A DNA stretch of 63,997 bases, counting the filler, from Jimgerdemannia flammicorona (Eukaryota): assembly GCA_003990765.1 (NCBI GenBank). It is 3 parts of 3 records of this genome, joined end to end, with 100 filler letters (N's around TTAATTAATTAA, not from the genome) between each part and the next. Parts side by side here need not be neighbours in the genome. Positions count along the whole stretch, not along the records: positions 1 to 21,570 come from RBNJ01001426.1; positions 21,671 to 43,227 come from RBNJ01001427.1; 1 more part is not named here. One strand, 5' to 3'. Both the position numbers and the translations under genes were made by a program. The notes under the pieces were generated by a model. It did not search any database. It was not told where the DNA came from and worked only from the letters and a program-made list of their open reading frames with translations. Shown in pieces: positions 5,639 through 37,041 of the stretch. Position 1 is the stretch's first letter, and every line of letters begins with the position of its first letter.

Positions 5639-7139
5639 TATAATGGTGACCACAGAATGATAACATCAGCATAGTAGATAGTCTTTTCTTACAAGCTATC
5701 AGATTAGAGCACAAGAAGATCTATGGTATATAAGATGAGCAGTGATGACTAACTGTAAGTCATTGTGACTATAGTATGGGTATCTTGAGAAATATAAAAG
5801 AAGGATCAAGGAACTACAGTAATAGCAATCAACAAGACCCACTAATCTCTAAATAGCTCAAAGACTTACTACAAATGAAATGTCTACTGCTTACCAAATG
5901 TCAAGGTCAAGGAACTACCAAGGTACCTCAGTTGAAGAAAGGATATTCCAAGACATCAGAAGAGCTATAAGGACCTGTACAAGAAGGACTCCTAGTGTTA
6001 ACCTGAGTACTGATAACTCTTATCATTATATCCTCTACTGCTATAAAATGGGAACAAGAATCACTATTACTACTGAATATCTCTAAATGTGGCAGGAGTA
6101 TGAAATAAGAAACCTTCTCTGCCAAGAGTTCCCACAGGCCAGTTCCCAGGAGTTATAAGATACTACTCTTATGAATATATATAAAGCAAGGATAGCTAAG
6201 AAGATTCATCAGATCTTCAGGCATGTACTATGGTCAATCTCCAACTTGGAGTATATTAGAGTCTCAGACTTCAGAGACCTGTCAGCCTGTCATATCAATG
6301 CACTAGAAGCCAGGATGGCTACAGAAGCTCAGTTCACTATCACCCTCAATAGTGATAAAGTAGAAGACTTCGGGCATCCCATCTTCCAGGACAACCTAGA
6401 CCAATTTCTACAAGGATTGATCTCAGTATTCCAAGGTCCAAGCATCTAGGTTAGATCTCTCCAAGACCCCATATTTTGTTCCCTATTTCATAGAAGAGAA
6501 CCTCATAGACTGGAGAGCTCCAGACCTCTTTGTTCCCACTGCTGCCAAACATGATGACATCATTAGCAATGACATCATCCTGCTGACCTATGTAATAATA
6601 ACAAAATGGATGAAATATTCATAGATCTTATCTCCTTTGAAGACATCCTGACCTTAGATGAGGATGAAGCTCCTATAATTCTAAATATTCTGCTCTAAAG
6701 TTCCTTAGTTATACTGAATTATTCCAGCACTATTTTTCTGTATTACTGAAATTATATCAGCATCCTAAACCTATGCAATCATCTGTACTGACCCTGGAAC
6801 TTGGCAGTTTTCCATATCCTGGCATTTTATTTTAGTTATTGGAATTTATATTTAGCTTTATATCTTAGCAACCATTGAATTATATTTTGTATAAATACCC
6901 CTCTTATTTCCTCTGAAATAAAGTTAGTTCCTCTAAGTACAATATAAACAATTCCTTACAAGCAATCTAAAGAGATATGTAACAAGATAGTTTAAAGATA
7001 TGTAAGAAGTTTGAGGACTATAAGATCTTGGGAAGGCACTCCAATAAGAACTTACTTGTAACAAACTTGAGTTAGTCTAAGAGATACACCTTGAAGAGAA
7101 TCTGACATATTTGAAGAACTCAGCAACTACTATATGACA
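5639..7139 (+). repeat. Family A 5' LTR (~1.5 kb)
   Basis: Starts tataatggtgac (mutated TGTAAC...) and ends ...tgaca; aligns with 12824-14317 and 23015-24550. Confidence 0.9.
5880..6698 (+). pseudogene. Disrupted copy of the family A LTR-encoded ORF
   Basis: ORF-track pieces 5880-6086 and 6171-6449 match the intact 272-aa ORF at 23255-24073; same 819-bp span. Confidence 0.88.
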
Positions 7140-7142
7140 ACT

Positions 7143-7160
7143 TGGTGCCCATTGGCTGGT
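7143..7160 (+). other. Primer-binding site (tRNA identity not determined)
   Basis: TGGTGCCC... three bases after the LTR end; complementary to a tRNA CCA 3' end. Confidence 0.65.
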
Positions 7161-7199
7161 GATTCAAGACAAATTCCTCACTTTCAAGCTGAAAAATAA

Positions 7200-8224
7200 A
7201 CAACTACCACAATAACTACTGACTACAAGAGTCACCCCTGCAAGAATTTAAGATATATCCCCCTATATTCTATAAATATACTACTAAAGAGTCAATCCTG
7301 ACCTTCATTAAAGACTTTGAACAATTCACTGCTGTACAAGTCCTTAGTGTAGATGTACAATTGGCTCTTCTATCTGTCAACCTCAGAGGACCTGCCAGAA
7401 ATAAGTTCAATATAGTCACTATTGCTGATGCTAATGCAGCCAAACTTGCCAACATGAAGACCTTTCTCAGAACAATATACTATACTGAAGAGATCAAGCA
7501 AGCTCTCAAGGACAAACCCAATACTATCCCCCAGAGACTCAGTAAAGATCCCAACTCATTCTATACCTGAATATGTCACTAGATTATCTTGGCTGACTAT
7601 AATAATGCCCTCAAGGAACAAATAGCAGATTCAACCTTCCTCAAAGGAGTTCACCCTGAAATTGTCCTAGCAATCTGGTCTACCTTAGCTACACTGACCC
7701 TTGAACAGAAAGTGGTCTTTGTACAGAGATATTAGACTGCTAGACACCCTGCCAAACACTCACTAGAGAAAATAACTATCATCAAGATAGAGCCATCAAA
7801 GTCAACCAGTATCATACTCACTACAGTTGTAAACAGGCAACTATCCCCATCCACCCCCAAGGCAGCCAAAGCTGACTCAGTGGAGGAACTCACCAAGCAG
7901 TTTACTGAGATAACTATATACCGTAGTGATATTATTAGAGAAGTCCAAAGTGCCAACAGGAGACCAGTACAGAGATTTGCAGCTGCTACAGAAGAATATA
8001 ATATCATATACTTCAGATATGGAGAAGAAGACCACTATGCAAAGAATTGTATAACTAAAACAAGATATAAAGCCCAACTAAGTAATACTAGCAGAACTAG
8101 AAAAAAACCCAATACAGTAGTCATTGAGGATATTGGTGATACTGATGATGAAGAATACTATGAGGAGCTTGAATTCTACCCTACTACTGAAGATACTAGA
8201 ATCTGGTCCAAGCCCTATGACTAG
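7200..8224 (+). pseudogene. gag: Family A gag with degenerate CCHC zinc knuckle
   Basis: LRGPARNKF segment and IYFRYGEEDHYAKNC (mutated Cx2Cx4Hx4C) at ~8005-8050. Start approximate. Confidence 0.75.
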
Positions 8225-8639
8225 AAGAGCAACAGCAAGTCAGTTGGAAGACCAAAGAAGACCCCAGCTGTCACTATCTAAAGTAAGACCCAAACTGAGG
8301 AGATTGATCAAGACATAGAGTTAGATGAAGCTGTTCACCAAATCATTGAAGGCACTACTTCAGTCTCAAAAAAAAGCAAAAGCAAGAAGGAATAGAAGCT
8401 GTATAAGACCAAGATCCACTAGTATGATATCTATAAGGACCTCAAGAAATAGAAGATCAATGCTACTTTTGGACAGCTAGCCAAAGTCCCTGCCTTCAGA
8501 CAGTAGTTAAGAGTAGGACTTGTAACTACTGTCAAGAATTAAGTGTACAAGATTGTAGAAGCTTACAATATACAGAAAGAATCTGAAAACTCAAGCAAAG
8601 AATCTAAAGACTAGCACAAGATATCAGCCTATACTCTAT

Positions 8640-9000
8640 ATCAGATGAAATATTATATCTTTAATGCCATCATTGATACCAGTGCTGGAAGATATCTTAT
8701 GAGCAAGAAGACAATTGACCACCTAGGCTGGGATATTGAAGAGTCCACCAAGATGGTCTATGTCATAACAAATAGTATACAAGCTATCTCTCTTGGCAAA
8801 ATCTGAGAAGTCTCAATCAAGATAGAATGAGCTACCATCTCAGTAGATGTAATTGTTATAAGTGCCATCAACTATGACATCCTCATTGGTAACCAATGGC
8901 TTCACAAGGCCAAGGTCATCATTGATATCAATGCTCAGAAGATGCAGATCAACTATAGAGGAAGAAAGGTATGAATTTTTATCAATGTCCACAAAGGAGT
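8640..9000 (+). pseudogene. Family A aspartic protease
   Basis: AIIDTSAG (DTG motif with a G>A change) at ~8667-8690 and DILIGNQWL at ~8876-8902. Confidence 0.8.
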
Positions 9001-9340
9001 TCTATCAGACATAGAGAAAGGAGATGAAGAGGATATAGAAGTCTTCATGTACTTGATAAATAAGAACAAGAACAAGATACCTAAGCTCACAGATGAGCAG
9101 TGGTATAACAAGATCATCAATAGCTATACCCCTCAAGGAAGATGCCCTCATAGTACTAGGATATACTACTCTGAACACCTGAATAACTGTCAGCCCTGTT
9201 TCAGTGAAGTTAAGAAAATCTGCTAACAGAAACATGAGTAAGAAGTTACTGAAGCAAAAAGGAAAGTCAAAGAAGATGACCAGCCTCTGGAGCTGTAAGC
9301 TGATAGTGATGATGAGGAGGAATAAGAACCAGACATCACT

Positions 9341-9748
9341 CTCAAGGTTAAGAAGTTTCACCCTGAAGCCAAGATCTCAGAATACAAGCCTGAAGGAGCT
9401 ATAGGAATAGACCTTGCCAGCATTCAAAATACTACTCTCAAACCACAGACCATCACTCTACTTGGCACTGGAATTGGAGTCAAGCTGCCAGAGAACCATG
9501 CTGGAATTATCAAGACCAGGAGCAGTCTGGCCAAAAGTGAAATCTCAGTTGAAGGAGGAGTAATTGACCCTGATTACACTGGCAAGATCTTCCTCATAGT
9601 CAGGAATCACAACCCCACCACCCCATTCAAAGTCAAGAAGTATGACAGGATTGACCAGATGCTGATCCACGAAATCAAGAAGTCCAAGATCACTGAAGCC
9701 ATCAAACTCATCAAGACCAAGAGAGGAGAACAAGGCTTTGGATCTACT
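9341..9748 (+). pseudogene. dut: dUTPase domain between protease and RT of family A (frame still open)
   Basis: All five trimeric dUTPase motifs in order: AIGIDL, RSSLA, GVIDPDYTG, DRIDQM, RGEQGFGST. Confidence 0.92.
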
Positions 9749-9939
9749 GAAAGAGGAGTCTATGCTACTACTAAGATTACCAAACTTGAGTACTAGAATG
9801 ATAGGGATCAGAACAAGCACACATATACCATTGGAGAAAACTTTCCCCTGGAAGAACAACTTCTCAAAATTCTGCATCAGAATGAAGGAGTACTTGCTAC
9901 AGACTTCAGAGATATCTATAATCGAGAACTCAAGTATTA

Positions 9940-12515
9940 CCATGAAGTTGATACTGGTAATATAAAGCCCATCTACCAGAAGGCCAGACCTATACCACCT
10001 GCCTATAGAGAATAGCTGTGAGCAGAACTTAAGGAAATGGAAGAAGCTGGAATCATCAAGCAAGTTATCAGTCCCTGGGCTTCATTCATTGTTCTCACTC
10101 CAAAGAAAGGAAGAAAGCCTGGAGAGTTTGCACCAAGACTCAGCATTGACTACAGGAAGCTCAATACAATCACCAAGAAGGATAGACAGCCCTTGCCAAA
10201 TATTCAAGAAATCCTTACCACTCTTAGAAGTGAAGCCAAATACTATACCACCTTGGATCTGTTCTCAGAATTCCATCAGATTGGTCTCACTTAAGATACC
10301 AGTGAGAAATCAGCCTTCATCACACCTGATGCCATCTATATCTATCTATAAATAACATTTGGAATATATAATGCCCTAGTAAGTTTTCAGCAAATGATGA
10401 ACAAAGTCTTCAATAATGAGATTGGAAAATGACTCTTTGTCTATATTGATAATGTGATCATCTTCAGCAATACTGTATAGAAATATATCAATTATATATA
10501 GCTAGCCCTCAAGAAGCTCAAGGAGCATGACCTCTACATCAAGCCCAAGAAATACAAGTTTGTAGCTCAGGAAATTTCCTACCAAGGACACATCATCAAT
10601 CAGACCAGAATCCATACAGACTCAATGAAAATTGAAGCTGTTATAGCCTACCTGAGATCCAGAACAACTACAGAAGTCCATGCCTTCCTTGGACTGGCCT
10701 CCTACTATAGAAGATTCATCAAAGGATACTCTAACATTGTAGCACCTATCTATGAGCTACTGAAGAAGGAGACCAAATTCGAATAGACTAAGGAATACCA
10801 AGAAATCTTCAATGAACTCAAGATTAGGTTGACCCAAGCACCTATACTCAAAAGACCAGATTGGAACCTAGAGTTCATTCTGCAGACAGATGCAAGTACT
10901 ATAGAACTTGGAGCAGTCCTAGCTCAGAAGAAAGATAGACATGAATATGTCATCTCCTATATAAGCCAAGATATCTATGGAGCAGAACAGAACTACAAGT
11001 CATATAAGCTTAAATACTTAGCAGTAGTTTGGATAGTAGACAAGTTCTACTACTATCTAACTAGAAAACACTTCACTATTCAAACAGACCATTCCACTCT
11101 TGCCTGGCTATTCCACACTCTGAACCCTAAAGGAATATATGCCTGATAGATCTACAGACTGTAAGAGTATGATAGTACTATCAAGCACCACTTAGGGAAA
11201 ACCAACACCAATTCTGATACACTCTCAAGGATACTCCAAAACACCTCTATCAAGGCTATTCAACATGAATAAGGAGTTATATTATAGATTAATCAGCTAT
11301 CTTGGACAACAGAAGATGCCCAACTATCTCGAACCCTGAATAATCACTATCATTAATCAGACTTGGAAACAGTTTGAACTAAACAATACTATACTCAGAA
11401 AAGGAAGAAATCTTGTAATACCCAAATATAAGAAGTATCAAGTAATGAAGGAAGTATATGAAAAAGGACACCTAGGAGGAACCAATATATATGATAAGGT
11501 AAGAAGAACTATATGGTGGCCCAAGATGGAAGAAGACCTGTGTCAATTTGTCAAAGAGTGTGACAAGTGCCAAAAATAGAAACAAGATCAATAAGACCAG
11601 GCACCTGGGTTATCAAGAATTGAGTATATCCCCTTCCACTATATTGCAATAGATATCATTGAGCCACTACCAGTAATACTATCAGAAAACTGCTATATTA
11701 TAGTTATTATAGACCTCTTTACCAAATGGATAGAAGCAGGAGCATTACAAGAAGCCAATGCCCTCTTTATAGCTGACTTCCTGCACCAAGAAATCATCTG
11801 CCACTACAAGACACTAAAGCAAATTACAACATACTGCAATATAGAATTTGTCAATAGGTTATATGAGATAATATATCAGAAAAACAAGATTCAGCACATC
11901 AAGACCACTGCATACCACTCTCAAGGAAATAGACAGATAGAGAGAACCAACAAGACCCTCAAGAACTTCTTGGTAAAGATCTCAGAGACATATGAGAATT
12001 GAGATAACTACCTCCCAACTACCCTCTCTGTCCTATGAGATATACAGTCACAGAGCACACACTTTACTCTAAGAGAACTGCTCTTTGGAGAAGAAGATTC
12101 TAATGGAACCTCAGCCACAAATCTAGACCTAACTTAGAGATAGGTTGATGCAGAAATCCAGAGGCTATACCAAATCAGAAAGAAGGCTGAAGATTACATT
12201 ATCAAGCACAAGTACTGATAAGGAAGAATGTGGAAAAGAATCACAAGACTCTAGAATCCATCCAAATTGGAGAAAAGGTTCTACTGTATCAAAATATGAT
12301 AGAAGCCTCATGGTTGCAAAAACTGGAACCCAAATGGGAAGAACCCTTCTATATGCAAGATATTAAGAGAACTACTTTCTGGCTTAGAAAAATCTCAGGG
12401 ACTATACTGCCTACTATGGTACACAGAAACAAACTTAAGAAGTACCATGAACCTATACAAGAGAAGTAAAATATAATGATTGCCCATGAGGTTCTAGTCT
12501 ACAAATTGTAACAGC
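9940..12515 (+). pseudogene. pol: Family A RT, RNase H and integrase (disrupted)
   Basis: SPWASFIV, IDYRKLN, LDLFSEFHQI, VYIDN (YIDD mutated), LQTDAS, QTDH, then integrase matching 21700-22700. Confidence 0.92.
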
Positions 12516-12823
12516 ATTTCCCATAACTAGCAGGCTATCTGTCTGGACCATTCTCTAAGAGATACAGTACCAGCAACTACTCATCTATAAGACTTTCAAA
12601 ACCAGAGAAGTTTGAACCATCAACTGATTTATCAAGATCAGAATCAGGCCCTTGCTCTATATAAAGAGAGTGACTCTTCACTATTATGCCAAAATATATA
12701 GAGAAGATACCAGCTCATAAATATCACTTTTCCACCCCTTGCCAGAGATATGGGATCAGCAAATTTTTCAGGACTGGACTAATGAATAAGGATATTTAAG
12801 AAGATCCTTATTCAGGAGGAAGA

Positions 12824-14317
12824 TGTAACAGTGACTCCAGAATGATAACATCAGTACAGGAGACAACCTTTTCTTACAAGCCACTAGATCAGAGCACAAG
12901 AAGATCATATGACATATAAGATAAGTAATGATAACTAACTGTGAGTCATTGTGACCACAGTATGAGTATCTTGAGAATTATAAAAGAAGGATCAAGGAAC
13001 TGCAGTAACAGCAACCAATAAGACCCACCAATCTCTAAATAGCTCAAAGACTTACTATAAATGAAATACCTACTGCTCACTAAACCTCAAGGTCAAGGAA
13101 CCACCAAAACACCTCAGTTGAAGAAAGGATGTTCTAAGACATCAGAAGAGCTATGAGGATCTGTACAAAAAGAACTCCTAGTATCAACCTGGGTACTGAT
13201 GACCCTTATCATTATATTCTCTACTGCTATAAAATGGGAATAAGGATCACCATTGCTACCAAATACCTCCAAATGTGGCAGGAGTATAAAATAAGAAACC
13301 TCCTCTACCAAGAGTTTCCACAGGCCAGCCCTCAGAAGTTACAAGATACTACTCTCATGGATATACATAAAGCAAGAACAGCTAAGAAGATTCATCAGAT
13401 CTTCAGGCATATACCATAGTCAATCCCCAACTTAGAGTATATTAGAGTCTCAGACTTCAGAGACCTTTCAGCCCACCATATCAATGCACTAGAAGCCAGG
13501 GTGGCTACAGAAGCCCAGTCCACTATCACCCTCAATAGTGATGAAGTAGAAGACTTCTGGCATCCCATCCTCCAGAACAATCCAGACCAATTTCTACAAG
13601 AATTGATCTCAGTATTCTAAGACCCAAGTATCCAGATTAGACCTCCCCAAGACCTCACATTTGTCCCCTATTTCATGGAAGAGAACCTTATAGACTGGAG
13701 AGCTCCAGACCTCCTTATTCCTGCTGCTGCTAAATGTGATGACATTATTGACAATGACATCATCCTGTATGACCTATACAATAATAATGAAACAGATGAA
13801 ACATTTACAGATCTCATCTCCTTTGAAGACATCCTGACCTCAGATGAGAATGAAGCCTCTATGATCCTGAACATTTTGCTCTAAAGTTCCTTGGTTATAC
13901 TGAATTATTTCAGCACCATTTTTCTGTATCATCAAAATTATACTAGTATCTTGAACCTGTGCAACCATCTGTGCTAACTCTGGAACTTGGCAGTTTTCCA
14001 TATCCTGGTATTTTATTTCAGTTATTGGAATTTATATTTAGCTTTATATCTTACCAACTATTGAATTATATTTTGTATAAATACCCCTCTTATTTCCTCT
14101 GAAATAAAGTTAGTTCCTCTCAGTACAATACATACAATTTCTTGCAAGTAATCTAAAGAGATAACAAGATAGTTTAAAGATAAGAAGTTTGAGGACTATA
14201 AGACCTTAGGAAGGTACTCCAATAAGAACTTGCTTATAACAAACTTGAGTTAGTCTAAGAGATACATCTTGAAGAGAATCTGACATATTTGAAGGACTCA
14301 GTGATCACTATATGACA
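12824..14317 (+). repeat. Family A 3' LTR containing the disrupted LTR ORF (13066-13884)
   Basis: TGTAAC immediately after the PPT; ends tgaca; ORF pieces 13153-13419 and 13675-13884. Confidence 0.92.
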
Positions 14318-14646
14318 ATAGATATTCTAAGAGAGTTAGAGAATTCTACTTCTATAGTAGAGTGAATTCTTGATTTCTCTAAGTAAATTATATATCTTAT
14401 AATACTGTCAGAGAAATCTATTAAGTCTTCTTTCTTATCTGCTTCTTATGATCTTGAGTTACTAGAGTTCTAAAAATCTATATCTAGGTCTGATTATAGA
14501 AAGAGATCAAATTCATCTCTTATATAATTTGGATAGTCTGTCTATTCTTTTTTTTTATCTTCTGAGTTGAAAGATTAATAGTCTTTCTTCTCATCTTTGG
14601 AATCAGAGACTTCAAAATATCTGAGATCTATTAATATTATAGTTAT

Positions 14647-17600
14647 TATTGAGATAGTAGCTCAATATATCAATATATGATTATGCCATTCTATCAGATT
14701 TATATCATTTATCAGTAAAGCATAAAATATATGCCCTATGAAACTTCAATAAAATATCTCTCTTTACAATAAAGATTATGAGCCCTGCTAGCACTAAGTA
14801 GCTATAGCAAAAATATCTCTTTAAAATACACTATACTAGGAATGTCTGATGATCAGTCTAGTAATGTGAGTATAGAAATAGATATACCAATTATGAGCAT
14901 TCTACCAACCATGAGTATAACTACCTCAACAGTTACAGGAAATATAGTTTCAGTTATAAGTATAAATACAGCCAAGAGATCTATCCTTATCTTTGATAGA
15001 AGAGACTATACTATTTGGACATTTCATTTGATGAATCTATTTGATAAATGCAGCTTTGTAGAGTATATAAAGCCACAAGCACTAATTTAAAATTATAATA
15101 CTGCAAATGATTACTGAGTATTATATAAGATCATATTCATATTGTTAAATTCTCAAATGAAGCTCATAGTATACTACAATAGCTCATGAGGTATAGAAAG
15201 CTCTATGCAATCATCATATGTAAGCATTTGCATTAAATCAATTCCACTTGAAATCTCAGCTATTCAATCTTTAAATAATTTCTAAAAAGAGCATCTATAA
15301 ATACACCAGTCATATTGATGATCTGGTGAATCAAGTAAATTCTCTCAGTATATCTACAGATTATATTGGGAATGAAGACAAGGTTATAGTACTTATAAGA
15401 GGACTTCTGGATATATATAATATTATAGTAATAGCTATACATGAGGGCAGTAGACTTACAAATTATATCTATATAATAATAAGTCTCATAAATAAGAAAA
15501 TATATTAAGGAAATAGTACCAATAATGATGAAAACACCTTCTATAGGTCTTGCAGATACAGTGTCAAATAAGGTCAAAAGTACAGACAATAAGGCCAAAG
15601 AGGATAAATCTAAACCCAAGCTCAATAACATGACAACCAGTCTACCAATCAATCAACCAAGTATGACAGTTACTATAGATACTGCAGCAAGTATGAACAC
15701 AGGAAGCAGCATTGCTATAGTTGGGAAAATAACAAAGAGAGCAGTAAAAATAAGCATAAAAAAAGCCAGCATTAGTAATATAGAAATAGCAGAAAAAACT
15801 ATTGAGGGAAGTGTGGTAATATAAATACTACTGAAACTGATAAAAGCAGTAATCTATTTTTTGCACAAGCTACTAATTCCACTACTAATTCTATTAGTAC
15901 AAGATCTACATCTACAAAATCTGGCAGAAGAATAACAATTTTAGACTAAAAAGTCACACTAATTCCACCAGTACCAGTTCTGCCAGTACAAGATTTACTA
16001 TTAAATCCACAACCTATCATTTATGAATTCTGGTCAACAGCAAAAGCAAAACACTTTTCACCTAATAAAAAGTGATAATGATATCAGTTATATATATAAT
16101 AAATATACTACTAACCCAGCTAATGACAATGATGTCTAGTTAATAGATTCTGGAGCAATATAATATATGATACTATATAGAGAATAGTTCTCTATATATG
16201 AGCCTTTTAAGTACTCTGTATCTATCAAATTAGGAGATAACAATATTATCTATACTCAAGGAAAGAGAAATGAAGAGATATATCTCTATAGCAATATTAT
16301 AGAACTCACTAGCACTTTTCTAGATATACTATATACTCTAGAAATTAGCAAGAACCTCTTTTCAATAGTGACATAGCAACAAAGTTATATATATATTCAA
16401 AAGGTACAACAGTGTATAATTTGCATGATAACAAAAGATTAATAATAGCCTCAAAGTGAGACAATCTTTATATAATCAATAGGATACTGAATAGTATGAA
16501 AGCCTCTGCTTATATAACAAATATATCTGATACATCTAATATATAGTATCAATGCTTAGAACATATTGGTAAGAAAAGTCTTAAACATATATTAAAAAGC
16601 AGCTTAGTGAGTAGATTGCTGATATATATATATCCAGAGGATAACTTTTGCAAAGTATATATAGAAAACAAAGCTTCCTAGCAACTATTTGAAAAATGAT
16701 TGAAGTGTGTCTTGGGAATTCTTGATCTCATTCATACTGATATATGTAGCCTAATGCATACCTCATCACACTTCAAAAAGAGATATTTTCTGATATTTAT
16801 TAATAATCATATATATAAGACATATATATATTTTCTATCAGTAAAGAGCAAAGTCTTAAGAATTCAAAGCAATCACCAAGAATGAAATAGGATATAGAAT
16901 ATACACTATATGCTCTGATAATGGATATGAATATATCAACAATATATTCAGATAATTCTTGACAAAATACAGTATAAGCCATCAGATAATAGCTCCTTAT
17001 ATATCTCAGTAAAATGATATAGCCAAGCAATTTAACTATATAGCTATAGGAATGGCATATATAATGATCAATATAGCTGGGTTAGGATATTCCTATTGGG
17101 CTAAAGCCATCAATATAGTAGTATACAACTGCAATAGATATATATCTCAATTATTAAGCAAGAGTTCTAGCAACAATAAGTATTTTAGAAATAATGATTA
17201 TATCTCTGAAAAATTATAGAGCAGATCCAAGCAGAATATATCTCATTTATATATATTTGGATATAATATATATATCTTTGACAAAAGTTATACTATCCAG
17301 TATAAATTCAAACTCAAGATAAGCAAGTACATATTTCTTGAGTATTCTGGCAAAGCATATAGGCTATGAGATCCATGCAAGTAGTTTATAGTTATATTAT
17401 GTAATATATAGTTTAGAGAAAAAGAAAATAATAAGGAGATCTATATAGAAGTACTGGTTGAGATCTCTATATCTATATCTCAGCCACTGTTATAACTAAT
17501 GCCAGTTTTTCAACTATCATCCACCTCTCTAGTGGTCAATTAAAATTATTTTCAACTACTATATAAGTCTGAGCCAAGAATAACAAAGATCAAAAATAAT

Positions 17601-19666: not shown

Positions 19667-19704
<38 letters not shown>

Positions 19705-19880
19705 TAGTATATATTATATTCTTTTTTTATAGATATACATCTTATTGAGTGGGAGTATTGGGATGGCAACTCCATATATCAATATATGATTATACCATTC
19801 TATCAGATTTATATCATTCATCAGTAAAGCATGAAATATATGATCTCTGCAACTTTAATAAAATGCCTCTTTTTACAATA
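14647..19880 (+). mobile_element. Ty1/Copia LTR retrotransposon, heavily degenerate
   Basis: 125-bp LTRs at 14647-14771 and 19756-19880; TSD GTTAT (14642-14646, 19881-19885); PPT gagtgggag. Motifs *LIDSGA (PR), LDLIHTDIC (INT), RT (YKAHLVAKSY) and RNase H (QAEY, HSRMKHINI) in Copia order PR-INT-RT-RH. Confidence 0.9.
14774..14787 (+). other. Copia PBS complementary to the anticodon arm of initiator tRNA-Met
   Basis: gattatgagccctg versus GGTTATGAGCCCTG (one G>A change), the half-tRNA-iMet PBS type of Drosophila copia and yeast Ty5. Confidence 0.8.
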
Positions 19881-22700: not shown

Positions 22701-23254
22701 ACAGTATGTCCTGTGACCAGCAGGCTATCTGTCTGGACTATTCTCTAAGGGATATGGCACTGGCAACTACTCATCCGTGAGACTTTCGCAGTCAGAGGAG
22801 TTCGAACCGTCAACTGATTGGTCAAGATCAGAATCAGGCCCTTGCTCTATATGAAGGGAGCGACCCTTCACTATCACGCCAAAATACAAAGGGAAGATGC
22901 TAGCCCATAAACACTAGTTTTCGACCCCTTGCCAGAGTTTATGGGATCAGCAAATTTTTCAGGACTGGACCAATGAATAAGGATGCTCAGGAAGATCCTT
23001 ATTCAGGAGGAAGATGTAACGGTGACCCCAGAATGATGATATCAGCACAGGAGACAGCCTTTCCTTACAAGCCACCAGATCAAAGCACAAGAAGATCATA
23101 TGGTATACGAGATGAGTAATGATGACCAACTGTGAGTCATTGTGACCACAGCACAAGCATCCTGAAGAATATAAAAAGGATCAAGGAACTGCAGTAGCAG
23201 TAATCAACAAGAACCACTAATCCCAAAATAGCTCAAAGACTTACCACAAACGAA

Positions 23255-24073: not shown

Positions 24074-24312
24074 GTTCTTTGTTACACTGGACAATGCCAG
24101 CACCGGTATTCTCATGTAACACCAGATAATGCCAGCACTGGTATTCTGAGGTGACGCAAAATTGTTCCAGCACTGGCATTTTGATGTGACACTGGATAAT
24201 GCCAGCATCCTGAACCTGTGCAACCAACAATACCAGCCCTGGAACTTAGTAGTTTTAGTTATTGAAATTTATATTTAGCTTTATATCTTAGCAACCATTG
24301 AATTATATTTTG

Positions 24313-24345
24313 TATAAATACCCCTCTTATTTCCTCTGAAATAAA
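24313..24345 (+). promoter_or_regulatory. Likely LTR core promoter (TATAAATA) and poly(A) signal (AATAAA)
   Basis: TATAAATA at 24313-24320 and AATAAA at 24340-24345, conserved in all three family A LTRs. Confidence 0.6.
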
Positions 24346-24550
24346 GTCAGTCTTCTCAGTGCAATACACACACTTCCTTGCAAGCAATCTAAGAGATAAC
24401 AAGACAGTTAAAGATAAGAAGTTTGAGGATTATAAGACCTTGGGAAGGCACTCCAATAAGAACTTGCTTATAACAACTTGAGTTAGTCTAAGAGATATAC
24501 CTTGAAGAGAATCTGGCGTATTTGAAGGACTCAGTGACCACTACGTGACA

Positions 24551-26395: not shown

Positions 26396-28457
26396 TGTAA
26401 GCGCACAACCCCCAAACCACCGAAATTACATGTCACCCTCTGAATAAGCCACTGAAATCACATGCAATCTCTGAACAAATCTGGAAATCACCTGCTTGAC
26501 CACAAAGCTGAGTCAAACCGAAGTCACAGTGCACAAAGCTAAGTCAATATGAAGTCACAGAACACAAGATTCACACAAACAGAATCTTACCAATCAGGAC
26601 CAAAGGCATATATACCAAGCACTGAGATGCATAAATCAGAGAACCAAAACAAACAACAACCATAACTTCCAAACACACAAACATGACCACCAAGATCTAT
26701 ACCCATATCTATGCTGACATTTGGAATGCCATTATCAACTGAGCCACACCCCCTCTGCCCCTCATGAATATCTATAGTCTAGCACCCCTCTACTTTATGG
26801 AAGCCCAATAAAATGCTCTGAACATGTTTAGCGAGGCCCACCGAATTGGACAAATCTCAAGCTACTACCAGATCAGCTGCCTCCTGGAAGACATGATCGA
26901 ACACAACCATGATACAGACATTACCCAGATGTCTCAACACCAGAAGCTCATCACCCGCAAACATCAAGAACTCTTCTATGAGTATAGCACTGTTATTCCC
27001 TGCCTCTGAGTTACCACAGCGGAAATGGTTGCTACCCTGTCCTATGGCCAAATCGACGACATGATATAAGAACTCAACCACAAGTACCTTTAGTATGTCA
27101 AAACCACAGACAGAACCTTCCCACACCCCAATGATCATATTCTACAAATGCCCCAAGTTGGATATACCATGAAGGACATCTATGATATAATCCACTTTGA
27201 TGAAGACAAAGCAGAAGACAATGATCCCTCTGACACTGACATGACCTCTAGCCAAGGATCTCTGCCAACCCTGATCACACTACCAACCTTGCCAATGAAC
27301 TTACAACAATTTATAACAGTATACAAGACTTATTGGGACAATGACCACTGGCACGAATACCAATCCGCGTTCACCCCTGACTACTTCAACTATAATGAAG
27401 AGATCGGAGAACACAACCTATACCTCCAGACAACCCTCAAGATCAAACCAACCACTCCACCACCTGAGTATAAGCAATATGAACCACAGCCACCAGCTTA
27501 CTACAACCCCATGACTCATAGTACTGTAACTTACAGGAGGTATGCAGACAGCGAATCTGATGAAAGTGAAGATGATGCACCCCTCCTTCGCCCACCAACA
27601 CCTTACCCAGCATATGAGACAGATGATGTCATCTTGTGGGACAGAGATGAAGTTCCAATGTATTATTACCTTAGTGAACAAGGAGAAGTAATCCGCGAAC
27701 CACTTTTCCTAGACAACTACTTCATTAGAGATGATGCAATTGATGGTGATGTCATCAAGGACTACCCAGACAGTGCCTAAACTATAAATAGCCTAGCAGT
27801 CATAGTATAGTTAGATTAGCCTTATACGACATGACTGTGAACTGACTCAGCAGTCAGACAATCTCTTGACATATCAGATCACACTTGTACTACATGACTG
27901 TATTCTAACTCAGCAAGGCACTTAGTGCTACATCCATATCTAACATAGTCCAGATAGCCCCTCACTAGTATAAATACCCCCTCCCCCAGACCTCAGAATC
28001 TCAGACCTGAACAATCCGAACACAACTTCTGAGCACTTCCCCACAATATCCCTTCATACAACTACTCCTAATATAGCAATATCATGAATAGCAAATAAAC
28101 CTATTCAATAACCCACAAACCACTCTTAAGTAAATCCACTCCCCGTTAGGTCCCACTCCTAACCCTGTCACGAAATTTCCTAATTGGGTATTATCTGCAG
28201 CGATATACCAATTCAACTAAGCTGGTCTTAGTTTCTTGAACTTCCTGAAACATGGAAAATCCTGAATATCCAGAACTAGTCCAAAAAAGGACTTTGGTTG
28301 AGACATCAACCTGAACTTGAAATCAATAAGCATAGAGGATGTACTCCATACGAAATTGATCTTGACCATAAGAAAACAGTCTTCCAGAATATCCAGAACC
28401 TCCAGAAAACCTTTCCAGAACTATGTAACAGTTACCTTAAAAAGCAACCCTCTTACA
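26396..28457 (+). repeat. Element B 5' LTR (2062 bp)
   Basis: Direct repeat of 34975-37036; differences are mostly transitions. Confidence 0.95.
26683..27780 (+). pseudogene. Element B LTR-encoded ORF (365 aa when stops are reverted)
   Basis: ATG at 26683 is in frame with track ORFs 26824 and 27148; no frameshifts. Stops are complemented by the other LTR copy (35262-36359) or are CGA>TGA type. Confidence 0.82.
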
Positions 28458-28460
28458 ACT

Positions 28461-28470
28461 TGGTAGCAGT
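28461..28470 (+). other. PBS, initiator tRNA-Met 3'-end type
   Basis: TGGTAGCAG three bases after the LTR end. Confidence 0.75.
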
Positions 28471-29420
28471 AGTTTACAATCCAATTCCGCTTCAAGACAC
28501 TTCCTCATCCTGCTACAAACCCTTCTGAGAATTCCTACAAGTTGATATAAAGCCCAACCTCTGAACTGGAATCTATCCTGAACCATCTGACAATCTGGAG
28601 AGAATTGAACCTAACGTACAAGGACAATTTGACCTCCACACCTGCAACAAGTGGGACAAACTTCATTCAAAGAAAGAAGTACTCCAGTTAAACCAGCAAA
28701 TAGATGAAACCCTATTCACTGAACTCCTTGCACTATACCCAGCAAGTCATAACAAAGAAGGTCTTATTGAAGCCTTCTTTACTCTTCTCAACAAGAGTTT
28801 TGTCAGCTCCACAAATCTGAGTGACCTAGGACAACCAGCAGTAGTCTTTCTAGCCTTAGTTCCTCATGAAGCCCAAGCCTCTGTAGCCAAGTGGCTCAAC
28901 TCTACCAACTTTCACCACACCAGGACCAAGGCCTGCCTTATACTACCGATTCCAGAACAGCAAGGCCCACTATATCCTTAAAGAAGAAGTAAGAGAAACC
29001 CTTCATCAACTACCTGACCCTGAACCTGAAGCAGGCCCTGCTACAGCCCTACCTGAATCTGAAACCAATACCGAACCTGAACTTGACTTTGAATTAAGTC
29101 CATCTGAAATCAGATATACAACTGATTCCATCTACTTTGATGCTGAGCAAACCCAATTACACAAGGACCAAACTAAAGAGGAGGAGGAGTATCTTGGTGA
29201 ATTCAATCCCGGATACACCACTGAAGGAGAAGCACCTCCATTAGGACAGAATACACCTACACAGCAACAAACAGCTATCTATCAAGCCCTCACCCCAGAC
29301 CCACAACTACTACTCCAGCAACTTACACAGACCCAAAGAACCCCATCACACTCTGCACCAGTACCTCAAGTAGTACTAGTAACACCACTACCAGCAGTCC
29401 AACCGCCTCCAGTAAACAAC

Positions 29421-32400
29421 ATAGTGAACCAACAGATTCTAGACCTTATAGCCCAGGTAGCCATAATGGCAGCAACCATTACTACCTTAGCTGAACAGAC
29501 CCAATCTACCAAAAATCTGAGCCTACCTACCTTCAATGGTACTGCACAAGAAGTCCAAAGCTTCATTAACGTAGTTGACACCAACTTCGAAGCCAATCAA
29601 TGGACTAATGAGTGAGTTGCTGACTGTGTTTTGACAAACAATCAAGACCACACTCTGGAACAACTCTTTGCTACCACTACAGCCTATGTCCACCAAGTTG
29701 TTACATTCTTCCAAGGACCTGTCAAAGAATGGTGGCGAACCCTTCCTGAAAAACCCCTAACATGGGATACCCAACCTGCAGTAGTTGCTCAGAATGCAGC
29801 AAACAATGCCCCAGGATATGGAGCCCATCCTGCAGCCCCTGGACTCAAACAACTCATGATTGTACAATACTGCAGTGAAACCATGATTGCTGAATCCCGA
29901 GTAAAACTCTATAACCTCAAATTCGATGTATATGGCAAAGAAGAATTCAAAACCTTCTGTACAAAACTCAAGTCACTCCTGAATACTGTTGGTCTAGGAT
30001 ATATCGCCAATGATGAAGCATGAAATGATACAAGAGCAGACCATTTATTTGATGCCCTGCCTGAATGGCTTACTAGAAAAATCTGAGAACAAGGCCACCC
30101 AGTTAGTTGTGATCACCAACAATGGTGCCTGGTAAGAATCAAGACTATGGTCAAGTGAATCCTAACAGCCAGACCAATTCTGCCCTGAAGGCAATTTAAC
30201 AACAAGGAAAGAACTTGGACCAAGAAAGAAGAACCCAAGCATGAAGCAGCCCGAGCTCCCTCCACATCCACATCTTGGACACCTAGAAATCATAAACCCA
30301 CCCAGCCAAGTACCTTCAAGAAACTTACTGAAGGTGAAAGGAATGAACTACGAAGAAGTGGAGCATGCTTCTATTGCCGAAAGACAGGACACATAGCCAG
30401 TACCTGCCCTAACTAAAAACCCCGAACAGCAATATGAGCAACAGTTACCACTCTGCACCACCTCAACAACCTGACCACCAGAACACTAGACTTTGTCAAG
30501 TTAAGACAAACTGCTAAGGCCCCAGCCAAAGGAAGTCAAAAAGCAGCTGGATATGACCTGTATGCAGCCGAAGAAGCTACAGTTTCCAACCGAGAAGTCA
30601 AACAAGTTTACACAGGAATCAGCATCCAAATCCCTGAAGGACATGTTGGAAGAATATGCTATCACAGCAGCCTAGCATTGAAAGGACTCTCAGTAGAAGG
30701 AGGAGTCATTGATGAGGATTATACAAGTGAAATTATTGTCCTCATCTGAAACCATAGTTGGACACCCTTCAAGATCCCTATAGGTTTCTGCATTGTCCAG
30801 ATCTTATTTGAAAAAATCGAGTCAACCCTGATAGTCAAGGAAGTCCCTGAACTACTACCTACTATCTGAGGATCTAAAGGATTTGGCTCATCAAACAAGG
30901 CCCCAGCCCAACCTACCATGAGCAAAGAAGAACAATTCTATAAGAAGATCGAAGACAGATATGTACCAAGTGGCCAATGCCCTCATGGTATTGGAATGTA
31001 CTCTTTTCGAATGATTGATGATTGCTTCTCTTGTATCAATGAACTGGTACAAAGAAGAGCCAACAGAAGAAAAGCCCCTATAACTGAAATCACCACCATT
31101 GGATCAGACAAACTGCTCATACTTAAGGCTTTTGTCAATCGAGCACCTGTCAAGATTATGATAGACAGTGGTGCCTCAGGCAACTTCATCAGTGAAGAAA
31201 CAGCCAACAGACTTAAGGTCTTCACCTCTCCAGTACAGCAAACTCAAGTAGTTGCTACAGCTGATAGAACCTCATATATTATTAGCAAAGAAGTCTGCAA
31301 TCTGTCCTTCTGAATTGGCAATTACTGAGTACATGTTACTCTCCAAATCGTTCCACTTCCTGATAATGAAATCATCCTTGGGACTCCATGGTTAAAACAA
31401 GAGAACCCCATGATCGATTGGGTAAACCATTCTCTGACCATCAAGAAAGGATGCCACAACTTCAAACTGCAAGGTGAAAAGGACCCACTTAATTCTAGCA
31501 ACCCTGGACCAAAGATTACCCACATCAATAAGCTGCAACTCAAGAAATTGACCAAGAAATGCCCTCTCTTGCCATCTCCATCCATCCATCCAAAGGAGAA
31601 CCCAAGAACTCTGAAGAAGATTTTTCCAAAGTCAACAGCCATGTCAGACCACTACTCCAGAAATTTCGAGACATATTCCCATAGAAGCTCCTGAAAGGCC
31701 TACCTCCTAAATGAGTAGTAGACTATATCATCAAGACTATCCCAGATACCAAACCAGCCTTCAAGTCAATCTACCACATGTCTCTGAGAGAAATCAATGC
31801 ACTCAAGAAAGAAATTGACAAACTCCTAGAACAAGGATTCATCAGACCCAGCGTATCACCTTATGGTGCACTAGTCCTATTTGTTGTCAAGAAAGGAGGA
31901 GACCTGCGAATGTACATTGACTACTGTGACCTCAATGAACAGACCATCAAGAACTGTTGTCCACTACCCAGAATCGATGAAATATTCGATAGGCTCACCA
32001 ATCTGCAATTCATGAGCTCCTTTGACCTGCGAAATAGTTACTGGCAAATTGCCATAAAAGAAGAAGACATCTACAAGACAGCTTTCTGAACTTGCTATGG
32101 ACACTTCGAGTTCCTGATTATGCCCTTTGGCTTAACTAATGCTTCTGCAACCTTCCAGACCCTGATAAATACTATCCTGCACCCATACCTGGACAAATTT
32201 GTTGTTGTCTACATTGATGACATCCTAGTCTTCAGCAAAACCCTGGAGGAACATCTTGAACACCTTGAACTAGTACTACTGAAACTCCAAGAAAACCGAC
32301 TTTTTGCAAAACTCAGTAAGTGCAAATTTCTCCTGAAAGAAATCCAATTCCTTGGATACATTGTCACACCAAATGGAATTAAGGTAGACCCCAGCAAAAT

Positions 32401-34552
32401 ATCTGTAATCAAAGATTGGCCCAGACTCAAGAAGCTGAAAGACCTCCAGTCATTCCTGAGATTAGCAAACTATTACAGGTGATTTGTTGCCAACTTTGCT
32501 AAAATTACTACTGCCCTCATCCAAATGACCAAGCACAGCAAGAAACAAGAACAACCCTGAACCATAAAACAAGAGAAAGACTTCAACAATCTTGTAACTT
32601 GGGGACCCAAGCAAGATACAGCTTTTCAAGCACTGAAAGATGCCCTGATAACCACTCCAGTACTTCAAGCGGCAAATCCTACCCTACCATATGAAGTTAC
32701 TACTGATGCCTCTGACCTAGCTCTTGGAGCAGTACTCATGCAAGAAGGACACCCTGTGGCCTATCACTCCCACAAGTTCAATAATGCTGAAATTAACTAT
32801 GTAACCCATGAGAAGGAAATGCTAGCCATCGTAGACACTCTGATTAAATAGTGACCATACTTAGAAGGAGTACACTTCACTATATTGACTGACTACAAGT
32901 CATTAGTCAATATCAAGACACAGGCTACCCTTTCTCGAAAGCAAGCCAGATGGATGAAAGTCCTCACCAACTTCAACTACGAAATCCAGTACTGCCCTGG
33001 CAAGGAAAATATTATTGCCAATGTAATCTCCAGACCACTAATCAAAGAAGTTATTCAAACTCTCACCTTGGTTACAAACTCCATCATGGAACAAATTATC
33101 ACAGCATGTACTGATGATAAGAAAGCTCAAGCACTTCAAGAAATCCTGAACAGTGATGATGCCGACAAGTATACACAGTATCATCAATATCAACTGAAGG
33201 ACAATACTATCTACTACAAAGATAGACTGTATGTCCCAAACAACTGAGACCTCCGAAGGACTATCCTATTCAAATGTCATGATGCCCCTACAGCTGGACA
33301 TTTAGGATTCGACAAATGCTATGAAGTTATCTCCCGAAACTTCTATTGGCCCTGCATGACAGATCAGCTCAAAACCTACGTCACTTCTTGTGATGCCTGC
33401 CAATGAAATAAGTCCTCAACACTAGCAAAACCTGGCTTACTTCACCCTATTCCAGTACCATCTGCGAATTGGGAACAAATCTCGATGGACTTTATTGTAC
33501 AACTACCCTGAACCAAGAACAGGAAAGATGCAATTGTTGTCTTTGTAGATTACCTCAGCAAACAAGCCCACTTTGTGCCTACCACCACTACTGCAACAGC
33601 ACCGGATATAGCTACACTCTTGTTTGATAACATTTTCTGCTATCATGGTCTTCCTAAGATCATTGTTAGTGACCAAGACCCGAAATTCACCAGCCATTTT
33701 TGGAAAGCCCTTCATGCATACCTTGGAACAAAACTTGCACTATCCACAGCCTTTCACCCTGAAACTGATGGCCAAACTGAAAGAATGAACCAAACTCTGG
33801 AACAAATGCTAAGGAACTATGTTTCCTACAGACAAGATGACTGGCATGAACACCTTACTGCAGTTGAGTTTGCCTATAACAATAGCAAGCAAGTCTCTCT
33901 CAGAATGACCCCATTCTTTGCCAATACTGGACAAAACCCAAATACCCCTTTGACACTTATCCGAACTACTGAAGAACCCTCTACAGTCAAAGCTGTTGAA
34001 GAATTCCTGCTCTGAATGTGTAATCTAAGCCAGATCGCAATCGAGAATTTATCACGAGCTCAAGAACAACAGTTACAGTATATTAACCAACACCATTGAG
34101 AAGAAACCTTCGATATTGGAGAGAAAGTTCTACTAGACATCTGGGGATACCGAGTTGACAATCTCAAGCACAGACCATCTACAAAGCTGAACAGCAAGTT
34201 CATTGGACTATTTAAAGTCATTGCACAAGTCTCTCCTACCTCCTACAAATTGGTGCTACCAGATACCATTAAGATTCACCCAGTCTTTAATGTTCAACAC
34301 CTCAAGCGATACAATGAGAATGATGATGAACTATTCCCTAACCGAACCATGAAACCACCTACACCTGTCATTATTAATGACCAAGAAGAGTACGAAGTTG
34401 AACAAATCCTCAACAAATGTGGCCACAAGAACCACCCAGAGTACCTTGTCAAATGGAAAGGTTACCCAATCTATGATGCAACCTGAGAACCCAAGACCAA
34501 CCTCCAGAATGCTACTGACCTAGTTCAAGAATATGATTCCTTGAACAACTAA
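29421..34552 (+). pseudogene. Element B gag-pol polyprotein (disrupted)
   Basis: PTFNG gag motif, CFYCRKTGHIASTC knuckle (~30366), IDSGASGNFI protease, YIDD RT (32209), TDAS RNase H, FHPETDGQTER integrase, EYEVEQIL...YLVKWKGY chromodomain. Confidence 0.95.
30486..30893 (+). pseudogene. dut: dUTPase domain between gag zinc knuckle and protease of element B
   Basis: AAGYDL, HSSLA (RSS mutated), GVIDEDYTSEI, CIVQI and *GSKGFGSS, in frame with gag and PR. Confidence 0.92.
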
Positions 34553-34974
34553 AACCAAATACTCCGCACCTATCTATACATACTATATATTATCCTCCCA
34601 AACACTATAATTATCGAAAATCAAGAACTCAGCAAAACAAGACAAGAATACTGACCCTCTGGAAAAATAGCAAAACTGAAAGCAAGCCTATTCTCCCTGT
34701 ACCACTGGTGGAAAACAAGGCATAGATATTTAAGAAGATCTCTTAGAGGAAATTCTCCAACAGTGAATGACGTCAGAATCACTTCTGGCGCATGGCATCA
34801 AACACATGACTCTTTAATATATGAATCCAACACATTAGGCAACTGTACTACGAGCATGCCACTTTCTGAGAAAAATGGACTTCACCAGACTTTTGACCTC
34901 CTAAATGGTGTAACAACACTAGAACAAAATTAGAAGGCCCCAATGAGGACGTCGAAAGCTAAGAAGGGGAGAGT

Positions 34975-37036
34975 TGTAAGTGCACAACCCCCAAACCACC
35001 AAAATTATATGTCACTCTCTGAAGAAGCCACTGAAATCACATGCGACCTCTGAAAAAATCTGGAAATCACCTGCTTGACCACAAAGCTGAGTCAAACCGA
35101 AGTCACAGTGCACAAAGCTGAGTTAATATGAAGTCACAGAACACAAGATTCACACAAATAGAATCTTACCAATCAGGACCAAAGGCATATATACCAAGCA
35201 CCGAGATGCGTGAATCAGAGAACTAAAACAAACAACAACCACAACTTCCAAACACACAAACATGACCACCGAGATCTATACCCGTATCCGCACTAATATT
35301 TGGAATACCATTGTCAACTGAGCCACACCCCCTCTGTCCCTCATAAATATCTATAGTCTAGCACTCCTCTACTTCATGGAAGCCTGATGGAATGCCCTGA
35401 ACATACTTAGTGAGGCCCACTGAATCAGACAAATCTCAAGCTACTATCAGATTGGCTGCCTCCTGGAAGACATGATCGAACACCACCATGATACAGACAT
35501 TACCCAGATATCTCAACACCAGAAGCTCATCGCCTGCAAACATTGAGAACTCTTCTATGAGTATAGCACTGTTATTCCCCATCTCTGAGTTACCACAGCG
35601 GAAATGGTTGCTACCCTGTTCTATGGCCAAATCGATGACATGATACAAGAACTCAACCACAAGTACCTTGAGTATGTTGAAACCACAGACAGAACCTTCC
35701 TACACCCCAATGATCATATTCTGCAAATGTCCCAAGTTGGATATGCCATAAAGGATATCTATGATATAATCCACTTCAATGAAGACGAAGCAGAAGACAA
35801 TGATCTCTCTGATACTGACATGACCTCTAGCCAAGGATCTCTGCTAACCCTGATCATACCGCCAACCTTGCCGATGAACTTACAACAATTCATAACAGCA
35901 TACAAGACTTATTGAGACAATGACCACTGGCACGAATACCAACCCACGTTCACTCCTGACTACTTCAACTACAATGAAGAGACCGGAGAACACAATCTGT
36001 ACCTCCAGACAATCCTCGAGATCGAACCAACCACTCTACCACCCGAGTACGAGCAACATGAACCACAGTCACCAGCTTACTACAACTCCATGACTCATAG
36101 TGCTGTAACCTACAGGAGGTATGCAGACAGCGAATCCGATGAAAGTGAAGATGATATACCCCTCCTTCACCCACCAATACCTTACCCAGCATATGAGACA
36201 GACAATGCCATCTTGTGGGATGGAGATGAAGTTCCAATGTATTATTACCTTAGTGAATAAGGAGAAGTAATCTGCAAACTACTCTTCCTAGACAACTACT
36301 TCATCAGAGATGATGCAATTAATGGTGATGTCATCGAGGACTACCCAGACAGTGCCTAAACCATAAATAGCCTAGCAGTCATAGTATAGTTAGATTAGCC
36401 TTGTATGATGTGACTGTGAACTGACTCAGCAGTCAGACAATCTCTTGACATGTCAGATCACACTTATACTATGTAACTGCATTCTGACTCAGCAAGACAC
36501 TTAGTGCTACATCCATATCTAGCATAGTCCAGATAGCCCCTCACTAGTATAAATACCCCCTCCCCCAGACCTCAGAATCTCAGACCTGAACAATCTGAAC
36601 ACAACTCCTGAGCACTTCCCCATAATATCTCTTTATACAACTACTCCTAGTATAGCAATATCATGAATAATGAATAAACCTATTCAATAACCCACAAACC
36701 ACTCTTAAGTAAATCTGCTCCCTGTTAAGTCCCACTCCTAACCCTGTCACAAAATTTCCTAATTGGGTATTATCTGCAGCAATTTGCCAATTCAACTAAG
36801 CTGGTCTTAGTTTCTTAAACTTCCTGAAACATGGAAAATCCTGAACATCCAGAACTAGTTCAAAAAAGGACTTTGGTTGAGACTTCCACCCGAACTTGAA
36901 ATCAATAAGCGTAGAGAATGTACTCCATATGAAATTGATCTTGACCATAAGAAAACAGTCTTCCAGAATATCCAGAACCTTCAGAAAACCTTTCCAGAAC
37001 TATGTAATGGTTACTTTAAAAAGCAACTCTCTTACA
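34975..37036 (+). repeat. Element B 3' LTR containing the disrupted LTR ORF (35262-36359)
   Basis: Follows the PPT; TG...CA ends; followed by TSD TATTA. Confidence 0.95.
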
Positions 37037-37041
37037 TATTA

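Follow-up and report, generated by a model that had tools for sequence, protein, structure and literature searches.

In fungal Gypsy retrotransposons, deoxyuridine triphosphatase (dUTPase) domains have been described at the N-terminus of Pol, at its C-terminus, or between the protease (PR) and the reverse transcriptase (RT), and independent acquisitions of these domains have been proposed; dUTPase-bearing examples are PosPlaTy3-3, PosPlaTy3-4 and PosPlaTy3-5 of Postia placenta, elements of Phanerochaete chrysosporium and Tmt1 of Tuber (passages of Novikova et al. 2010, PMC2864245). In betaretroviruses, the dUTPase is part of a trans-frame fusion with the nucleocapsid (NC) that ends next to PR (passages of Hizi and Herzig 2015, PMC4531489). 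In the Juno long terminal repeat (LTR) retrotransposons of bdelloid rotifers, it is located between PR and RT and is followed by an extra zinc knuckle (passages of Rodriguez et al. 2017, PMC5408684). Here we analysed a stretch of 63,997 nucleotides of the Jimgerdemannia flammicorona genome (GenBank assembly GCA_003990765.1), made of three parts of three records joined by filler letters and hereafter called the window. It carries two families of Gypsy elements, A and B, in which a dUTPase is accompanied by a small Cys/His domain, the finger, and in which each LTR contains an open reading frame (ORF). We consider it probable that the finger and the dUTPase form a lasting pair and that the LTR genes of the two families are independent of each other, with no exchanged package and no link to resistance against repeat-induced point mutation (RIP).

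By position, the dUTPase of family B resembles those described at the N-terminus of Pol and that of family A those intervening between PR and RT; however, the passages of PMC2864245 mention neither a CxH...CxxC domain beside the dUTPase nor an ORF in the LTR, and families A and B have both. Our literature search, from which Repbase, GyDB and Dfam were left aside, found no paper in which a Cys/His domain accompanies a dUTPase in fungal LTR elements; with the same scope, it found no paper on an ORF inside a fungal LTR. Variable positions of the dUTPase in fungal Gypsy elements were already published, at least in the passages cited, whereas the linkage to the finger and the LTR genes were in no paper found.

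Self-comparison and reading of the junctions identified two complete LTR retrotransposons, A1 and B1, and two fragments, A2 and B2, all on the + strand. A1 (5639–14317) is complete but dead, with many stop codons. Self-BLAST paired its LTRs as 5638–7140 and 12823–14318, with 87.6% identity, and the exact ends were then read from the sequence: the 5′ LTR (1501 bp) spans 5639–7139 and the 3′ LTR 12824–14317. In both A1 and B1 the LTRs have TG...CA ends, with a primer-binding site (PBS) after the 5′ LTR and a polypurine tract (PPT) before the 3′ LTR; in the 5′ LTR of A1 the first G reads A, which is a RIP-type change. The PBS of A1, TGGTGCCCATTGG, begins at position 7143 and its PPT, AGGAGGAAGA, lies just upstream of the 3′ LTR, while the flanks, TATAA and ATAGA, differ, i.e., without a matching target duplication. 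Pfam scans, run on stop-free pieces of the elements, located in A1 an aspartic protease at 8615–8971 (gag-asp_proteas, E 0.0047; RVP_2, E 3.6e-4) and a dUTPase at 9326–9793 (PF00692, E 2.7e-26), the latter within a 156-codon open stretch bearing the trimeric dUTPase motifs. The finger lies between them at 9083–9232 (hidden Markov model (HMM) of the finger, 73.5 bits, independent E-value 2.9e-24, and translation). RT (10022–10783), RNase H (10787–11143) and integrase (IN; 11340–11999) follow, as defined by Pfam and by tblastx against family B. The fragment A2 (21671–24550) retains the integrase (Pfam rve and H2C2) and a 3′ LTR of 1536 bp delimited by self-BLAST (23015–24550); it is 84.8% identical to A1 by self-BLAST, is less mutated and has a GC content of 45%.

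B1 (26396–37036), also complete but dead, was defined by self-BLAST, Pfam and reading of its ends, and it is bounded on both sides by the 5-bp target duplication TATTA. Its two LTRs of 2062 bp (26396–28457 and 34975–37036) are 92.2% identical and align without gaps in self-BLAST. The PBS, TGGTAGCAGTAG, begins at 28461 and the PPT, AAGAAGGGGAGAG, is found just upstream of the 3′ LTR. The end of gag carries the CCHC zinc knuckle of the nucleocapsid (30189–30413; zf-CCHC, E 7.1e-5), followed by a dUTPase with two in-frame stops (30504–30899; Pfam E 2.2e-19; dUTPase HMM 166 bits; translation) and by the finger (30918–31067; finger HMM 80.6 bits; translation). A block identified by Pfam then extends from PR, which comes first, to the chromodomain (31101–34483), with RT at 31715–32479, RNase H at 32561–33244, IN at 33248–34012, and SH3_Tf2-1 followed by the chromodomain (Chromo PF00385, E 1.3e-7) at 34100–34483. 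B2 (38539–42418) is a heavily mutated fragment, 78% identical to B1 by self-BLAST, which retains a partial LTR, gag, a dUTPase (41243–41635; Pfam and HMM scan), a degraded finger (41660–41803; HMM scan) and the start of PR. The domain order is thus PR-finger-dUTPase-RT-RNase H-IN in family A and CCHC knuckle-dUTPase-finger-PR-RT-RNase H-IN-SH3_Tf2-1-chromodomain in family B, the core order PR-RT-RNase H-IN being conserved in both, as in Ty3/Gypsy elements (Metaviridae). Self-comparison, Pfam and junction reading agree with the coordinates and domain orders given in a preliminary description of this DNA.

The two families were proposed to be distinct Gypsy lineages. In tblastx comparisons, A1 and B1 share ~30% identity over 182 residues of RT, 38–41% in RNase H, 42% in the zinc domain of the integrase and 27% in its core. 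Neither A1 nor A2, which is better preserved, gave a Chromo match at E≤0.01, and family A is for this reason not placed among the chromoviruses; a chromodomain located C-terminal of the integrase, the feature by which chromoviruses are recognised, is present in family B only. The low RT identity, the chromodomain restricted to B and the differing PBS therefore indicate that A and B belong to different Gypsy lineages, and a close kinship of their RTs is ruled out.

Despite this distance in pol, both families carry the same finger. Translation yields in each a domain of ~45 residues with the pattern C-P-H-x12-C-x2-C, and the A and B versions are homologous (37.5% identity over 40 residues, E 2e-7, tblastx). 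The finger is always located between PR and the dUTPase, in mirrored orders: PR-finger-dUTPase in A and dUTPase-finger-PR in B. These data bear out the view that a dUTPase and the same Cys/His module are present in both families in a different arrangement. A six-frame HMM scan of the window detected exactly three fingers and three dUTPases, in A1, B1 and B2. Both dUTPases are well above the curated PF00692 cut-off of 22 bits, with 92.3 bits for A and 70 bits for B. The trimeric dUTPase motifs are visible in the alignment and the best matches in the PDB are all dUTPases (down to E 2e-20 for A1), from which both enzymes are assigned to the trimeric type, with a predicted dUTP hydrolysis activity. 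The solved dUTPases align to the enzyme part only and not over the finger.

We asked how often the finger accompanies a dUTPase. A profile built from two sequences, the A and B fingers, gave 16 matches at E≤1e-3 among 1,835,955,588 representative proteins, and a dUTPase (PF00692) adjoins the finger in 10 of these 16. Eight have the dUTPase-finger order of family B (P0009, P0010, P0011, P0013, P0014, P0019, P0021 and P0024) and two the finger-dUTPase order of family A (P0016 and P0018); a CCHC knuckle or PR is found at the position seen in families A or B in five of the ten. Finger and dUTPase therefore co-occur beyond the two families of the window. Three further matches, P0017, P0020 and P0022, were judged spurious as finger proteins, being internally repetitive and matching the profile only in part. 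An alignment of 15 fingers shows no variation at the first and the last Cys, and the Pro, the His and the third Cys are each kept in 14; each of the four candidate ligands (C, H, C, C) is thus retained in 14–15 of the 15 sequences. A search for long proteins with the dUTPase of family A returned three proteins only: P0025, an open PR-finger-dUTPase-RT frame whose dUTPase is 86% identical to that of A; P0026, a finger-less Ty1/Copia polyprotein of 1864 residues whose dUTPase lies between IN and RT (RVT_2); and a Gypsy polyprotein with a C-terminal dUTPase and no finger. P0026 shows that dUTPase capture occurs in Copia elements too. When viral contigs were scanned with P0025, a single, unrelated viral dUTPase was retrieved (L001, 38% identical). 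The finger is thus rare and, when enough flanking sequence is available, always found beside a retroelement dUTPase; it is not a general component of retroelement dUTPases, because no solved dUTPase chain spans it and both Copia and Gypsy elements exist that bear a dUTPase without the finger.

The association might nevertheless have nothing to do with dUTPase function, the finger being a PR-flanking or a second nucleocapsid-like knuckle whose linkage to the enzyme would reflect nothing but descent within a Gypsy subgroup. The finger does adjoin PR as well, in both orders, an acidic linker of ~45–100 residues parts it from the dUTPase in A-type proteins, and with only ~13 true clusters common descent could explain the co-occurrence. 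However, the pair is kept in both A and B despite their distance in pol; in the eight B-type proteins the finger starts ~15–25 residues after the last dUTPase motif; no match contains a finger and PR with the dUTPase clearly absent; and the finger is unlike the CCHC knuckle family, none of the 15 sequences matching zf-CCHC (PF00098) at E≤1. We consequently regard descent without a functional tie as an unlikely explanation of the pairing.

To what fold the finger belongs was approached by modelling. AlphaFold2, run with the 15-sequence alignment, gave a model with a mean pLDDT of 91.2, which comprises a helix, a hairpin bearing the CPH residues, a further, short helix and finally a helix with many Lys, Arg and Gln residues, at the start of which the CxxC is placed. 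No Pfam family matches the 15 fingers consistently, and a profile search of the PDB retrieved no chain matching the finger (nothing below E 0.35). Fold searches with the model returned nothing convincing, the best Foldseek hit being at E 1.8, and the best VIA-align score was Z 3.4 among 48,161 chains. Zinc is commonly held by a knuckle together with a CxxC at the start of a helix. With its knuckle in a beta-hairpin, its four candidate ligands and a basic helix that opens with the CxxC, the domain would be a zinc finger, and one that is apparently undescribed. It would most likely anchor the dUTPase inside the particle, either on nucleic acid or on the reverse-transcription complex, and the anchored enzyme would remove dUTP at the site of cDNA synthesis, the same job as that of the betaretroviral NC-dUTPase fusion.

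The comparison with betaretroviruses can be made at the level of domain order. According to the passages of PMC4531489, the dUTPase in p30 of mouse mammary tumour virus (MMTV) and in Mason-Pfizer monkey virus (M-PMV) is joined to a zinc knuckle and placed directly before PR, which is the NC-dUTPase-PR order of family B. However, the zinc domain of these viruses is, in the same passages, the CCHC nucleocapsid itself, on the N-terminal side of the dUTPase, whereas family B has, besides its CCHC knuckle, a separate CxH-x12-CxxC domain whose sequence does not match zf-CCHC. Juno is a second point of comparison: as described in the passages of PMC5408684, it differs by its animal host and by the order after PR, which is dUTPase then knuckle, and its knuckle resembles the finger by description only. 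None of the 16 finger-profile matches is evidently a Juno-like protein, as far as their records tell.

The second feature common to both families is the presence of a gene within the LTR. Retroviral genes located in, or overlapping, the U3 region of the 3′ LTR include sag of MMTV, nef of human immunodeficiency virus and bel of foamy viruses. In family A, the LTR gene is intact in A2 (23255–24073, + strand, 272 codons and a stop, LTR offset ~240–1058) and broken in both LTRs of A1 (5880–6698 and 13066–13884). Five open homologues were found in the databases, with 59–91% identity, four of which have the same stop. Contigs from four public runs were aligned to the family A LTR at a likeness of at least 85%. 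The best 40 of the 227 variant places include 27 within the ORF, distributed as 3, 7 and 17 over the first, second and third codon positions (binomial p 0.0015), and 17 of these 27 listed variants are synonymous, against the 32.5% expected for random transitions. The third-position excess is not explicable by the C/G content, because C/G is spread over the codon positions of the ORF as 36, 27 and 37%. The ORF makes up 56% of the LTR, and none of the best 12 of 23 indel places falls within it. In run X1, a loose contig end passes from the end of the LTR into the family A PBS, and the same LTR therefore heads elements elsewhere. The acidic, Asp-rich tail of the protein (23898–24053) was the only stretch of the LTR left almost without cover by contigs of the four runs at this likeness, and its length varies among the five homologues.

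In family B, the LTR gene is found in the 5′ LTR of B1 at 27025–27780 and in the 3′ LTR at 35604–36359 (+ strand). The 5′ copy comprises 251 codons and a stop, with two in-frame stops near its start, and the 3′ copy also has two in-frame stops, placed differently. Its one homologue, P0008 (247 residues), has the same Met and the same stop, and the alignment of 227 residues shows 64% identity, 80% similarity and two in-frame gaps. When neutral evolution to 64% identity was simulated, the frame of family B was open in 6–17 of 1000 runs. In both families, the LTR ORF and the pol genes of the same elements are alike in GC content by codon position. From these patterns, both LTR ORFs appear to be genes on which purifying selection acts, the case being stronger for A than for B.

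An opposite explanation is that the LTR ORFs are non-functional, i.e., chance-open or relic frames kept alike by constraint on the promoter or enhancer or by the youth of the copies. It would account for several observations. Neither protein has a relative in Pfam (0 families) or in PDB profile searches (none below E 0.35), the ESM Atlas held no usable relative for either, and no relative was found when metagenome contigs were scanned with both LTR-ORF alignments. Confidence in the predicted structures is very low (pLDDT 36 for the family A protein with AlphaFold2; 0.39 for P0008 in the ESM Atlas), and the homologues are few, all on short contigs, in databases that record open frames only. However, constraint at the DNA level does not produce a three-base period such as that of the A variants, which are rich in third positions and mostly synonymous, with the listed indels outside the ORF; the B frame is open, its start and stop unchanged, at an identity where 0.6–1.7% of the neutral simulations leave it open; and the codon-position GC is like that of pol. 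Frames without function are thus improbable.

The oversized LTRs, of 1.5 and 2.06 kb, hence encode a protein each, as had been claimed, since each contains a sense ORF; but the two proteins are unrelated. Homology between them was rejected (best BLASTP E 0.31; hhalign probability 1.3%), and there is therefore no shared LTR gene. Both proteins are acidic, are predicted to be without a fixed fold and carry a C-terminal acidic motif, RDD-[VA]-I-x-x-D-V-I, a likeness that is not significant. They may be compared with sag, nef and bel, in which a sense-strand coding frame also lies in the LTR, apart from gag-pol; they differ from these by the absence of any sequence relation (0 Pfam families) and by their occurrence in retrotransposons without env. 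Among fungal Gypsy elements, the Boty-like elements of Botrytis bear brtn, an extra gene of unknown function which is antisense and located between pol and the 3′ LTR (Zhao et al. 2011, as given in passages of PMC7264820 and PMC8365987). The LTR ORFs are not of the brtn type, the A and B ORFs being on the sense strand and wholly inside the LTR. The LTR genes would rather be lineage-specific accessory genes, independently acquired, and their products would most likely be regulators or adaptors expressed from the LTR, as in the case of retroviral U3 genes.

The preliminary description had gone further and proposed that the LTR gene, the dUTPase and the finger are exchanged between lineages as one package that counters the host defence. 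In favour of a horizontally moving package directed against RIP or silencing, all three kinds of feature are present in two unrelated lineages of one genome, finger and dUTPase occur together elsewhere in both orders, and the LTR proteins have the short acidic C-terminal motif in common. However, the two LTR proteins lack homology. The families have diverged as much in the dUTPase (39% identity, tblastx) and the finger (37.5%) as in pol (27–42%), and a recent exchange is therefore not apparent; identities between A-type and B-type dUTPases (25–42%) are no higher than those to the finger-less Copia dUTPase (31–41%). The order of finger and dUTPase is also opposite in the two families, and the pair is thus not the product of a simple cassette move. 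What stands of the proposal is the recurrence of the finger-dUTPase pair, in 10 of the 16 matches. These comparisons support a long-standing association of the finger with the dUTPase, but neither a recent nor a packaged exchange.

The decay on which the proposed defence rested is real. Between sister LTRs, 167 of 176 differences are transitions in A1 and 153 of 160 in B1; about half of these transitions lie in a CpA context (CpA bias), and the LTRs of B1 are without indels. The C>T decay is RIP-like, and all the copies that carry these features are damaged. A dUTPase removes dUTP before cDNA synthesis and has no action on the deamination of integrated DNA. Nothing supports an anti-defence role, as every copy is RIP-damaged and the dUTPase acts on the nucleotide pool rather than on chromosomal deamination, and we regard the mobile anti-RIP package as highly improbable.

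We therefore retain, as the probable account, a finger-dUTPase pair together with LTR genes of independent origin. Several points weigh against it. Every copy in the window is inactive. Three of the 16 profile matches (P0012, P0015 and P0023) are short pieces (63–157 residues) in which a finger is present and a dUTPase is not, so that fingers without a dUTPase may exist. In a maximum-likelihood tree of 11 dUTPases, built without cellular fungal dUTPases as root, one of eight inner branches is supported, and a single origin of the finger-linked dUTPases is neither shown nor rejected (approximately unbiased test, p-AU 0.126). Zinc and nucleic-acid binding by the finger are predictions, and no fold match backs any function. 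As for the LTR genes, the term U3 accessory gene is applied to both ORFs by analogy only. The constraint figures of family A come from 40 of 227 variants and 12 of 23 indel places, and in run X16 two contig pieces (records 19 and 20) have two gaps each over the 5′ part of the ORF. The family B gene has a single homologue, P0008, and an ascertainment bias applies, as databases hold only frames that stayed open. The present data establish the descriptive parts, namely the architecture, the linkage of the finger to the dUTPase and the constraint on coding in the LTR ORFs, which are much firmer than the proposed functions. A more specific version can be formulated, in which each lineage independently evolved or captured an LTR gene, the retrotransposon equivalent of a retroviral U3 gene, for an acidic, unstructured regulator, e.g., a trans-activator or an anti-silencing adaptor acting through its C-terminal motif, and in which the finger would represent a new zinc-finger family that occurs solely as an obligate partner of retroelement dUTPases and targets them to the reverse-transcription complex; we offer it tentatively, as rather doubtful in this full form.

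The remainder of the window contains further repeats. A third retroelement lies on the minus strand, where an open frame of 227 codons (56173–56853) matches RVT_1 at E 8.5e-16; parts of this element recur at the left end of the window (90–514 with 58320–58740 and 1197–1986 with 59407–60189) at 65–68% identity. Diverged direct repeats with units of ~320–880 bp, 63–80% identical, occupy 50298–52714 and overlap several open frames without Pfam match. At 45102–46787, an open frame of 561 codons has a GC skew of +0.53, with long frames on both strands and no Pfam match, and looks more like biased or repetitive sequence than like an ordinary gene. AT-rich blocks with a GC content of 21–30% lie between the elements (3000–5600, 14300–21000, 24500–26300 and 37000–38500) and are presumably older, fully RIP-degraded repeats. 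An inverted repeat pairs 3867–4127 with 4754–4496. The eight bases that follow the 3′ LTRs of A1 (14318–14325, ATAGATAT) and A2 (24551–24558, ATACATAT) are alike; in AT-rich DNA this likeness may be fortuitous, or the two 3′ ends may have a history in common.

Fungal Gypsy dUTPases have been known since 2008–2010 (earlier work on them is reportedly that of Novikova and Blinov in 2008 and of Riccioni in 2008), and a conserved companion finger provides a concrete handle on their role. The pairing of finger and dUTPase suggests convergence with the betaretroviral NC-dUTPase fusion. To our knowledge, selected protein-coding genes inside the LTRs of retrotransposons without env have hardly been documented. 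The two unrelated LTR genes found side by side suggest that long fungal LTRs can carry genes, beyond their role as promoters. This bears on the question of how retroviral accessory genes arose, and on the annotation of transposable elements, in which the masking of ORFs in LTRs is usual.

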